4,538 nucleotides of DNA from a virus (IMGVR_UViG_2657245461_000004), one strand, 5' to 3'. Numbered from the stretch's first letter, positions 1,055 through 4,117 are shown. Notes: generated by a model not told the origin, from the letters alone. A program made the numbers and translations.

Positions 1055-1684
1055 TCAGCCCCGGCTGGATCCAGTCATCAGGCTCTTTCTTAAAGGGGGA
1101 GTATTGAAATCACGAAGAAGAGCCTCCCGCACCGCAGCATCCATGTCTGCACCACTGGCAAGTGCTTCAATCTCTGCCGCCACCTGCAAATACCCCATGC
1201 AACGGCCAATGCGTTTCATAACTCTGGTGTTTTCGTCTTTCAGGCATCTGATAGCGAGATTAATAATTTTCAGGCAGTGATGATGCGATGCCCGGACAGG
1301 TTTTCCGTTCTCATAAACGACGAACTCACCCTCTTCACAGGAAACCCTGAAAGGCCGATGGGGTTCCTGGTCTTTATCCGGTGCAGACGCAATAAAATCA
1401 CTTTTATGCTCTTCCTCTCCGGCACTGTTAACCGTAATGACGTACTCAGGCCGCAGGTAAGCCGCCTCTTTTTCTGACAATGCGGCCGGTAAAAACTTTT
1501 CCTGCAAAAACTTCATAAAAGTCTCGTGAGCGACTTTGTGGCAGTAATCGTAAATCGCCGCATAATGCTCATCGCGGCGTTTGTTTTCATCTTCAGAACT
1601 CACCAACGCCGACAATTTTTTATTAAGCTCAGTGATTTCATTTTCCAGGTGATTGAATCGCTGATTCATTTCTTCATGCTTCAT
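1055..1684 (-). CDS. hypothetical protein, 209 aa, acidic, no TMD; inserted between pinholin and endolysin
   Basis: Long ORF starting ATG 1684..1682, 4 nt after the holin-A stop (TAAATAATG), with an SD-like GGGGAGAG upstream. N-terminal coiled-coil-like segment (EEMNQRFNHLENEITELNKKLSAL), several Cys/His (YCHKVAH, HHHC). I recognise no family from the sequence. Coding status is supported by length, coupling and absence of a competing sense-strand ORF. Confidence 0.6.
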   Translation of the reverse strand: MKHEEMNQRFNHLENEITELNKKLSALVSSEDENKRRDEHYAAIYDYCHKVAHETFMKFLQEKFLPAALSEKEAAYLRPEYVITVNSAGEEEHKSDFIASAPDKDQEPHRPFRVSCEEGEFVVYENGKPVRASHHHCLKIINLAIRCLKDENTRVMKRIGRCMGYLQVAAEIEALASGADMDAAVREALLRDFNTPPLRKSLMTGSSRG

Positions 1685-2719: not shown

Positions 2720-2796
2720 TGGACCGCCACCGGGGACTCGAACCTCGCACACTCAACTTAAAGGGTTGACGCTCTTTCCTGATGAGCTAGTGGCGG
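2720..2796 (-). tRNA. atypical tRNA-like gene, anticodon UUU (Lys) if functional; possible pseudo-tRNA
   Basis: Reverse complement CCGCCACUAGCUCAUCAGGAAAGAGCGUCAACCCUUUAAGUUGAGUGUGCGAGGUUCGAGUCCCCGGUGGCGGUCCA folds as a cloverleaf with a perfect 7-bp acceptor stem and anticodon stem UCAAC/GUUGA. Non-canonical features: loop CCUUUAA has C at position 33, the 5' end is C1, the discriminator is U73, and the T-stem has an A-C mismatch. Confidence 0.5.
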
Positions 2797-2975: not shown

Positions 2976-3004
2976 CACAAAAAACCCGCTTGTGGGCGGG
3001 TTTT
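2976..3004 (-). terminator. intrinsic terminator (tR'-like), potentially bidirectional
   Basis: Minus strand AAAA-CCCGC-CCACAA-GCGGG-TTTTTTGTG: 5-bp GC stem, 6-nt loop, U6 tract. The plus strand reads as a hairpin followed by TTTTGTTTG. Lies about 70 nt downstream of the putative late promoter. Confidence 0.65.
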
Positions 3005-3054
3005 GTTTGCTTTTGCCATCACGTACAAAATCGGCAAAGTATCAGATTTGCATG

Positions 3055-3083
3055 AATATATGCCTTTCAATCTACTTTTGCAA
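3055..3083 (-). promoter_or_regulatory. candidate late promoter (pR'-like) overlapping the 3' end of Q
   Basis: Minus strand TTGCAA (3083..3078, within the last Q codons), 17-nt spacer, TATATT (3060..3055) directly after the Q stop. This is the position expected for pR'/qut in lambdoid phages. Sequence-pattern prediction only. Confidence 0.5.
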
Positions 3084-3755
3084 CACTTTGCTTTGAAAAT
3101 GCCGTCTTTTTTTTGAACGTGTTCTCATTACAAACAATAAAGCCTCACTATCCAGTCGGTGAAAAATGTGTTTCATTGCAACCCAGTGACGAGTAAATGT
3201 TTTGGACCAGTTTTTAGTTGTCACTCCCGCCAGTAATGCCAGCTCCTGGTATTCATAACCTTCCCCACCAAAAAGTTCTGCTTTTACTGCCTGCGCCGCC
3301 AGCCAGATTAATTTTTTCAGGCGTTCCTGCGTTTTCCCTGCAATTTTTCTGGTACCGGATTGAGCATTAAATTCATTCCACGCCCACTGTGTTATCGCGA
3401 TCTGATATTCCCAACAAATACTCCCGCTGTAACACCACAACAACCAGGCTTTATAGTGCTCTTCAAGAGACAGAACAGCCCGCCGCCACGATGATGTCGA
3501 AAACTCAACCGGACTGACCAGAGGAATTGACGTCCCCTTCGCCAGCGATTGCTTTCCCGGGATTGGTGGATTATCCCGCGTTATCATTTTTCCAGTCACT
3601 TCATCGCGGTACCGGATTTTTTTACGCCTGTAACGCCCTGTATCGAACATGGCATTCTCTTGCCAGGCTTCAAGCTGACCTTTTGTTGCCCCACTCAAAT
3701 CAGCGGTGGCGATAATGAGCTGCTCACGCACAAACTGTAAATACTGGTTATTCAT
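3072..3755 (-). CDS. Q: putative late-gene antiterminator Q (non-lambda type)
   Basis: About 227-aa ORF whose ATG (3755..3753) overlaps the rusA stop (ATGA). The ORF track starts at GTG 3761. Position between rusA and the pR'/tR'/tRNA/lysis block matches Q of lambdoid phages. Several Cys/Trp-rich segments. The call is mainly by synteny; I cannot verify homology without a search. Confidence 0.6.
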   Translation of the reverse strand: MNNQYLQFVREQLIIATADLSGATKGQLEAWQENAMFDTGRYRRKKIRYRDEVTGKMITRDNPPIPGKQSLAKGTSIPLVSPVEFSTSSWRRAVLSLEEHYKAWLLWCYSGSICWEYQIAITQWAWNEFNAQSGTRKIAGKTQERLKKLIWLAAQAVKAELFGGEGYEYQELALLAGVTTKNWSKTFTRHWVAMKHIFHRLDSEALLFVMRTRSKKRRHFQSKVLQK

Positions 3756-4117
3756 GCGCACCCCAGTTCTGTGATTTTTATCCCCAGCCGCCCACCAGGA
3801 ACGAGCTGACCGCGCACAATATTGATTTCATCAAACTGCTCGTCGTCTATAAGTAGTCCAGCATGCGTCAGCGCATCCAGCGGTGCCTTCAGGATATTGT
3901 CCAGGTCACGACGGCGCTTATCCGGTGGCTCTGCAATAATCTTTATCGCCAGCCTTCCGGACAGGTTTAATTTCAGTCGCTGCTGGCGAACAATTAGCGC
4001 CACATCACGGCGATAACGCTCACCGGCTTTTGATACAAAATATGTGCTGCCACGACGTCGCCAGTAGGTGTTCACCGTTGGCGGGTAAGGCAAAACAAAT
4101 TCTATGCGTTCGGTCAT
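3752..4117 (-). CDS. rusA: crossover junction endodeoxyribonuclease RusA (Holliday junction resolvase)
   Basis: 121 aa with the RusA family pattern LPYPPTVNTYWRRRG ... PDKRRRDLDNILKAPLDALTHAGLLIDDEQ ... GGRLGIKITELG. ATG 4117 directly follows the upstream TAA (TAAATG). Confidence 0.9.
   Translation of the reverse strand: MTERIEFVLPYPPTVNTYWRRRGSTYFVSKAGERYRRDVALIVRQQRLKLNLSGRLAIKIIAEPPDKRRRDLDNILKAPLDALTHAGLLIDDEQFDEINIVRGQLVPGGRLGIKITELGCA

Follow-up and report, generated by a model that had tools for sequence, protein, structure and literature searches.

A four-gene tRNA cassette in a prophage-derived sequence contains one member, a gene with the anticodon UUU and a C at position 33, that raises the question of whether it encodes a lysine tRNA at all. 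The gene lies within 4,538 nucleotides of viral DNA (IMGVR_UViG_2657245461_000004; the whole stretch is referred to here as the window). A sequence-only reading had described it as a clean cloverleaf with three unusual features, C33, a C1-G72 first pair, and a U73 discriminator, and had proposed either that the gene is decaying into a pseudo-tRNA or that this phage tRNA has changed its decoding or its identity. Sequence comparisons identify it as an anticodon-shifted allele of an arginine tRNA carried by lambdoid prophages of E. coli and Shigella. Both of the earlier options still stand in sharpened form, although the arginine ancestry, a mismatch in the T stem, and the minus-strand orientation of the gene had been overlooked. 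No paper found in our literature search describes this gene as an arginine tRNA with C33 and a shifted anticodon.

Read on the minus strand, the gene has the sequence CCGCCAC UA GCUC AUCAGGAAA GAGC G UCAAC CCUUUAA GUUGA GUGUG CGAGG UUCGAGU CCCCG GUGGCGG U CCA, with C1 at 2796, G72 at 2724, U73 at 2723, and an encoded CCA at 2722-2720. The anticodon loop (2764-2758) reads C32 C33 U34 U35 U36 A37 A38, with the anticodon UUU at 2762-2760 and C33, at 2763, in place of the U that is near invariant in tRNAs. The CCA of the upstream CAU tRNA occupies 2800-2798, so that only base 2797 separates the two genes. The four features named in the earlier reading, among them the start 1 nt past the upstream CCA, are thus real. 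ARAGORN, whose scoring it had asked for, placed a minus-strand tRNA-Lys(ttt) at 2720-2796, in agreement on the anticodon. The features of the locus are collected in Table 1.

Table 1. Features of the tRNA cassette and its surroundings, in window coordinates
Feature	Position	Strand	Evidence or remark
tRNA gene under study, 77 nt, cassette slot 2	2720-2796	minus	ARAGORN; Rfam tRNA, 44.4 bits; identical copies annotated tRNA-Lys by PGAP
Anticodon loop CCUUUAA of slot 2	2758-2764	minus	Read from the sequence; sister alleles L147, L191, L198, and others
T-arm segment of slot 2, bounded by mismatched A51 (2745) and C63 (2733)	2733-2745	minus	Pair marked nonstandard in the Rfam alignment
Slot 1, CAU (Met/Ile2) tRNA, ileZ-like	2798-2873	minus	ARAGORN; Rfam; PGAP tRNA-Ile
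Slot 3, tRNA-Thr(UGU)	2642-2717	minus	ARAGORN; 75/76 identical to K-12 thrU, difference A9G
Slot 4, tRNA-Gly(UCC)	2564-2638	minus	ARAGORN; 75/75 identical to K-12 glyT
Single-base spacer between the Ile2-type CCA and C1 of slot 2	2797	minus	Polymorphic
Promoter-like TTGCAA-17-TATTAT, 10 nt upstream of the cassette	2883-2911	minus	9 of 12 positions match; putative function
tR'-like intrinsic terminator hairpin, between Q and the cassette	2981-3004	minus (the scan lists the plus strand)	
Late antiterminator Q gene	3072-3761	minus	Pfam PF06323, 305 bits
Holin gene (P21 S type), with which the lysis genes downstream of the cassette begin	1897-2112	minus	Pfam PF04971

C33 is rare in other tRNA genes. 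Among 231 other distinct tRNA sequences predicted by ARAGORN in the loci compared, which include metagenomic phage loci, 224 have U33, and six have C33 (Asn GUU, Tyr GUA, Pro UGG, Glu CUC, Val GAC, and Leu GAG). These C33 calls are raw ARAGORN predictions, and several of the six anticodons belong to reported nuclease targets.

The cloverleaf claimed by the earlier reading was supported by ARAGORN, by Rfam, and by covariation, but "clean" does not describe it, since the mismatch of A51 with C63 in the T stem had been missed. All four tRNAs of the cassette matched the Rfam tRNA model (RF00005), the slot-2 gene with 44.4 bits (E = 2.5e-07; gathering score, 29) and its neighbors with 65 to 72 bits. 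The slot-2 gene retains U8, A14, G18-G19, A21, G53-U54-U55-C56, A58, C61, and the 3' CCA, as judged from the sequence and the Rfam alignment. Its unconstrained minimum free energy (MFE) fold is not the cloverleaf, as is commonly seen with unmodified tRNA sequences; the cloverleaf has an energy close to that minimum, a value that is unreliable because the evaluation counts the nonstandard A51-C63 pair. Across 28 distinct slot-2 alleles, 97.1% of cells are paired, none of 500 shuffles reached the observed covariation score, and both sides have changed at six pairs (3-70, 4-69, 7-66, 27-43, 30-40, and 51-63). Pair 51-63 is AU in six of these alleles, GC in six, GU in six, and something else in the other 10. 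Since this covariation backs all four helices of the cloverleaf, the slot-2 family has evolved as a structured tRNA. A refold giving a canonical loop had been named as a possible refutation. Shifted registers (U33 with a stop-reading UUA anticodon, or an 8- or 9-membered loop) were inspected and rejected because no stem could be drawn for any of them from the sequence.

The window contains two N-runs with near-duplicate blocks on either side, which would be in keeping with an error in sequencing or assembly or with a tRNA-like fold that arose by chance. We consider an artifact of this kind extremely improbable, however, given that 279 complete genomes and two phage genomes contain the identical 77-mer, that two independent tRNA detectors (ARAGORN and Rfam) recognize the gene, and that the N-runs lie at least 300 bases away from it.

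When phage records were searched, the first half of the cassette aligned with ileZ and argN at 91.8% identity. Like the slot-2 gene, argN, the tRNA-Arg(UCG) gene of the ileZ-argN-argO cassette of Stx phages, follows a CAU tRNA in the same slot downstream of Q and has a 77-nt body with C1-G72, U73, A20 in the D loop, UUCGAGU as the T loop, and an encoded CCA. An alignment with argN of an Stx2a phage runs base for base along one common body, and the slot-2 gene differs from 933W-type argN at only about 12 of 77 positions. The anticodon loop of argN is CUUCGAA, with U33 and C35, whereas that of the slot-2 gene is CCUUUAA; two pairs of the anticodon stem differ through compensatory changes; and pair 7-66 is U-A or U.G in argN but C-G in the slot-2 gene. 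When scored with Rfam, argN itself reached only 43.0 bits. Since a bona fide Stx-phage argN shows the same C1-G72, U73, and low Rfam score, these are traits of the family rather than of decay. The first two and the tight abutment to the upstream gene make up three of the four oddities noted earlier, and all three are inherited from the argN/tRNA-Arg family. The gene thus fits the slot-2 tRNA-Arg group both by homology of its body and by its position downstream of Q, where it follows a CAU tRNA and precedes another tRNA, and its only derived oddities are U33C and C35U in the loop and the A51-C63 mismatch. The argN gene of Stx2a phage F349 (L001, 1583-1659) combines the same mismatch with a G3.U70 pair, the classic alanine identity element.

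Closer relatives were recovered by neighbor-anchored scans and by a scan of one genome per species. These rare sister alleles (e.g., E. coli ECMA0423, S. flexneri SFBU1023, and IMG/VR loci L147, L162, and L191) occupy slot 2 of the same cassette and share both body and anticodon stem (UCAAC/GUUGA) with the window allele, but their loop is the canonical CUUCUAA or UUUCUAA of a tRNA-Arg(UCU), pair 51-63 is A-U, position 26 is A, and position 73 is G or U. Relative to them, the slot-2 gene of the window has U33C and C35U in the loop, U63C, which turns the A51-U63 pair into the A51-C63 mismatch, and A26G. Such Arg(UCU) alleles are, by this comparison, most likely the parent of the window allele, and the "altered identity" of the sequence-only reading proved literally correct, in that an Arg(UCU) allele now carries a lysine anticodon. 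Single-step forms on the same body, either U33 with UUU or C33 with UCU, were absent from IMG/VR (2.9 million viral contigs), and U33 with UUU was also absent from a metagenome collection, in which the sole match was an unrelated tRNA-Lys. Alloacceptor shifts, in which an anticodon point mutation moves a tRNA into another codon family (tRNA gene recruitment or remolding), are known, and C33 is tolerated in some functional tRNAs, e.g., eukaryotic initiator tRNAs. Those precedents are cellular or organellar and have demonstrated functions, whereas the gene described here lies in a prophage cassette and any function of it is putative.

The amino acid that this tRNA would accept is harder to assign than its ancestry. 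In E. coli, arginine identity depends on A20, C35, U or G at position 36, and A or G at position 73, with A20 as the main determinant for ArgRS, and lysine identity depends on the UUU anticodon and A73 (PMC9976931). The slot-2 gene has kept A20 and U36 of the arginine set, has exchanged C35 for U, and has U73; of the lysine set it has gained UUU but not A73, given the U at 2723. Its body aligns with argN and the tRNA-Arg alleles and not with tRNA-Lys genes. E. coli tRNA-Lys (lysT family) resembles it in UUU and A37-A38 and has no homology to it in the body; tRNA-Lys of E. coli has G1-C72, A73, U33, and the stem GUUGA/UCAAU, and A73 is also present in 30-odd bacterial tRNA-Lys genes. Judged by these elements, charging with lysine, weak charging with arginine, and no charging are all possible. 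Codon supplementation for lysine is a weak explanation for the gene, even though the AAA/AAG use of the window genes is somewhat above the E. coli level, because the host has ample tRNA-Lys(UUU), encoded by about six gene copies in K-12, so that an extra supply is unlikely to be of benefit.

The locus is the late-operon leader of a lambdoid prophage, the site where Stx phages carry ileZ-argN-argO. From upstream to downstream, the order is Q, terminator, Ile2, slot 2, Thr(UGU), Gly(UCC), and holin, and the flanking open reading frames (ORFs), all on the minus strand, match DUF968/HNH, RusA, Q, P21-type holin, lysozyme, and Rz in Pfam. Since the Q gene lies upstream, the cassette is placed in the Q-dependent late operon. 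We take the hairpin between them to be the minus-strand late terminator because a minus-strand U-run follows it and because weak isrK and isrJ matches (2979-3052, minus strand; 22 to 23 bits, below threshold) end there. In the related locus L042 (7547-7735), a full isrK match (58.9 bits) lies beside a C4 antisense RNA match (80.7 bits). Besides this hairpin, another promoter-like site was found between Q and the tRNAs. Both hexamers of the promoter-like site 10 nt upstream of the cassette can still be recognized in alignments of otherwise very divergent flanks, which suggests that the cassette may be transcribed from a promoter of its own, potentially also in lysogens. The spacer at 2797 is the most variable site of the cassette (28 A and 17 G in a sample chosen by the D arm of the slot-2 gene; 40 A and 24 G among canonical alleles in a neighbor-anchored sample).

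IMG/VR contains two types of this cassette, Ile2-argN(UCG)-argO(UCU) and Ile2-[C33/UUU]-Thr-Gly. The window genes use AGA, AUA, ACA, and GGA at 10.4, 12.3, 12.3, and 15.1 per 1,000 codons, respectively, which fits an original role of the cassette as a set of decoders for rare A-ending codons; through C35U, the cassette has lost its AGA decoder. The Thr and Gly genes (2564-2717; L376) look like a captured host thrU-tyrU-glyT operon from which tyrU has been lost, and Salmonella records still have a Tyr gene between the two. Elsewhere in the window, a 209-amino-acid ORF between the holin and lysozyme genes (1055-1684, minus strand) had no Pfam match; related loci have a shorter "YdfR family" gene in its place. 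The two N-runs (1874-1884 and 2392-2401) each lie between near-duplicate blocks, of which 1688-1873 matches 1897-2082 at 88%, duplicating the holin gene, and 2244-2391 matches 2403-2550 at 98%. The duplicated regions (1688-2082 and 2244-2550) look like two prophage alleles joined in the scaffold rather than true tandem duplications.

The allele is widespread. Of 5,426 complete E. coli genomes, 279 contained the exact 77-mer, and 798 contained related copies at 90% identity or more. By comparison, the L198-type Arg(UCU) allele was found in 16 of the 5,426 genomes; other UCU alleles would fall in the 90 to 95% identity band, which comprises 45 genomes. Among species representatives, the anticodon arm of the slot-2 gene on its own body was found only in E. 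coli and Shigella flexneri, and two induced phages carry the exact allele. PGAP annotated every exact copy listed, as well as one-mismatch copies, as tRNA-Lys; in keeping its fold and its standard annotation, the window allele is unlike a pseudo-tRNA. Diversity was 0.22 to 0.26 per site in the flanks, versus 0.002 to 0.007 within the four tRNAs (0.005 in slot 2), in a sample that had been selected with the D arm of the slot-2 gene itself and was consequently biased and hid damaged copies. Our first conclusion from it, that the gene was as conserved as its neighbors, was dropped for this reason, and the sample was superseded by the neighbor-anchored scans.

Damaged copies are indeed frequent. 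When 60 of the 798 matching E. coli genomes were sampled at even spacing, about 43% of the copies were annotated as tRNA-Lys, and about 57% were unannotated and carried further damage. A U12 deletion with C70U accounted for about 28% of the copies and is widespread in enterohemorrhagic E. coli (EHEC) lineages, in an Ile2-X-argO context; the set C4U, U8C, and C11U accounted for about 20%. Worse derivatives had an added G52A or G18A or had lost 7 nt or the whole anticodon arm. At four loci that we inspected, PGAP left the damaged slot 2 unannotated but still annotated Ile2, Thr, Gly, or argO. Damage extends to phage records, with the U8C allele in Evi and the U12-deleted allele in PPompW prophages. 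The "decaying pseudo-tRNA" proposed earlier thus finds support in a series of further-damaged, uncalled copies, whereas the intact allele, exactly conserved and widely spread, speaks against it.

Measured as load, slot 2 also shows more changes than the other members of the cassette. Per nucleotide and relative to the modal allele, 113 neighbor-anchored cassettes carried a load of 0.0131 in slot 2, 0.0082 in Gly, where a single compensatory pair accounts for most of it, 0.0050 in Thr, and 0.0018 in Ile2. The slot-2 load is 1.6 to 7 times that of its neighbors, a comparison that overstates the contrast because Thr and Gly, as copies of host genes, may be repaired from the host copies by gene conversion and so kept intact. 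Segregating sites per nucleotide in the same cassettes were nevertheless similar, at 0.195 for slot 2, 0.197 for Thr, 0.133 for Gly, and 0.130 for Ile2. Among 89 slot-2 alleles, the acceptor/T half was better kept than the rest (0.92 versus 0.83 to 0.85; P of about 0.02), and the anticodon arm and variable loop were the most variable parts. A similar picture emerged from the Ile2-argN-argO cassettes (L212 to L310), in which about a third of 151 argN copies are degenerate (about 27 are scrambled CCGCCATTAGCTTATCAGGAAGAGCAGACGACACGATAAC... and about 20 have A58G with stem mismatches) and the adjacent argO is well kept.

A UUU anticodon has arisen a second time in the cassette. Exactly seven IMG/VR contigs (L134, L138, L142, L144, L159, L147, and L194) carry a thrU-like slot-3 tRNA with UUU (G35U) and A26G; A26G is among the four derived changes of the window slot-2 gene as well. 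In all seven, slot 2 is either an Arg(UCU) or a heavily damaged C33 allele. A scan for further UUU alleles on the thrU body returned only these seven; the other matches were ordinary tRNA-Lys genes of other bacteria. Sporadic anticodon point changes were observed on every member of the cassette (L031, L042, L003, and one group-B allele): the ileZ body occurs with CGU, the argN body with GCG and UCU, and, in E. coli CE0026a, the C33 body with UGU, which PGAP annotates as a second tRNA-Thr.

Taken together, these data lead us to favor, tentatively, the interpretation that the gene is a decoding-impaired relic of mixed arginine and lysine identity, kept by linkage to its cassette and possibly still useful as a processing module. 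It would be transcribed with its neighbors, from the Q-dependent late transcript, the upstream promoter-like site, or both, and RNase P would cut it out together with them. As a decoder it would be crippled or inert, with C35 lost for ArgRS, A73 missing for LysRS, C33 in the loop, and a mismatched T stem. Lying 1 to 3 nt from useful neighbors, it could persist by coinheritance while decaying slowly in many prophages, and its acceptor/T-arm half, an RNase P substrate, may still help to release the 3' end of the Ile2 tRNA. Several observations fit a relic poorly. The intact allele is dominant in slot 2 of the E. coli cassette (798 genomes with group-A-like copies, 279 of them exact, versus 16 with the L198-type Arg(UCU) allele), and it occurs in many flank backgrounds (0.22 to 0.26 versus 0.005), which would be unexpected for a null allele unless hitchhiking were strong. 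Its density of segregating sites is no higher than that of Thr (0.195 versus 0.197), and the second UUU anticodon, on the thrU-like neighbor and likewise with A26G, is seen only where the cassette has no intact copy of the slot-2 gene.

The main alternative is that the gene is a working lysine decoder on an arginine body, charged by LysRS through UUU and selected because it survives host anticodon nucleases, an explanation that we regard as plausible but rather unlikely. Such a tRNA would sustain AAA/AAG decoding in lytic growth once the host tRNA-Lys had been destroyed. PrrC cuts tRNA-Lys 3' of U33 and, when overexpressed, cuts tRNA-Arg(UCU) even more (PMC2610378), and phage tRNA-Lys genes rescue phages from a PrrC system (PMC11555353); C33 sits at the bond that PrrC cuts, between positions 33 and 34. 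In the case of AriB, the PARIS nuclease, whose required site is missing from the anticodon stem of the slot-2 gene, the U39A change abolishes cleavage, and tRNA-Lys of phage T5 escapes in this way (PMC12409363; PMC11464382). The slot-2 gene reads U36-A-A-G39-U40-U41, with G39-U40-U41 replacing U39-C40-A41 at the AriB site, and changes in the anticodon loop beside cleavage sites have been reported as a recurring feature of phage tRNAs (PMC10264068). At the level of sequence, what is expected of a nuclease-evading tRNA is therefore present, namely, UUU, C33 at the PrrC junction, and an altered AriB site. T5 tRNA-Lys(UUU) is likewise phage encoded and has an anticodon stem that differs from that of the host tRNA-Lys at the AriB site, but its resistance to cleavage and its rescue of infection were shown experimentally, which implies a working tRNA-Lys, whereas the slot-2 gene, with its arginine-type body, C33, and U73, is a candidate. 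Also in favor of a lysine decoder are the far greater frequency of the allele, in many backgrounds, compared with its Arg(UCU) parent; its presence in two induced phages; the anticodon arm, which is the most variable part of slot 2 and has compensatory stem changes; the second origin of UUU in the cassette; and the occurrence of the C33 body with UUU and, in one genome, with UGU, the two prime AriB targets.

Against a lysine decoder, the Arg(UCU) parent already has the non-AriB stem, which was thus not acquired for this role, and the neighboring Thr(UGU) does not differ from host thrU at the AriB site, which means that the cassette as a whole was not built against PARIS. The gene has U73 in place of the A73 of lysine identity, and substitutions of U33 lower ribosome binding. 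More than half of the E. coli copies carry additional structural damage, the record of phage Evi has a damaged allele, and the seven thrU-UUU contigs represent only two haplotypes. In the case of gamma-toxin, another anticodon nuclease, U33C made no difference (PMC2275089), and our literature search found no paper testing U33C against PrrC. The more specific proposition that lambdoid phages turned their own arginine tRNA into a lysine decoder whose C33 and foreign stem make it immune to both PrrC (cutting between 33 and 34) and PARIS AriB (cutting between 40 and 41) strikes us as unlikely; if it held, this would be counterdefense through an alloacceptor shift, and the independent UGU-to-UUU shift with A26G on the thrU neighbor would be another answer to that pressure. 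Less probable still, and in our view doubtful, is a mistranslating tRNA of dual identity that ArgRS charges through A20, inserting arginine at lysine codons, with C33 fixed to damp the harm. A20, the main ArgRS determinant (PMC9976931), is kept, and U33C and C35U always occur together, single-step forms being missing from IMG/VR and U33 with UUU from metagenomes as well. However, C35, also a strong arginine determinant, is lost, and a single historical origin explains the joint U33C/C35U change equally well.

With its damaged derivatives included, the gene occurs in about 15% of complete E. coli genomes, and it is routinely labeled tRNA-Lys despite its arginine-type body, shifted anticodon, and C33. 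If the impaired-relic interpretation that we favor is correct and the tRNA is inert, this label is misleading, and the cassette would be a clear natural example of a tRNA gene killed by an anticodon mutation and carried along by its useful neighbors. If the tRNA works, it would be a rare natural elongator tRNA with C33 and the first candidate for a nuclease-evading tRNA of temperate lambdoid phages, extending the case of the virulent phage T5.
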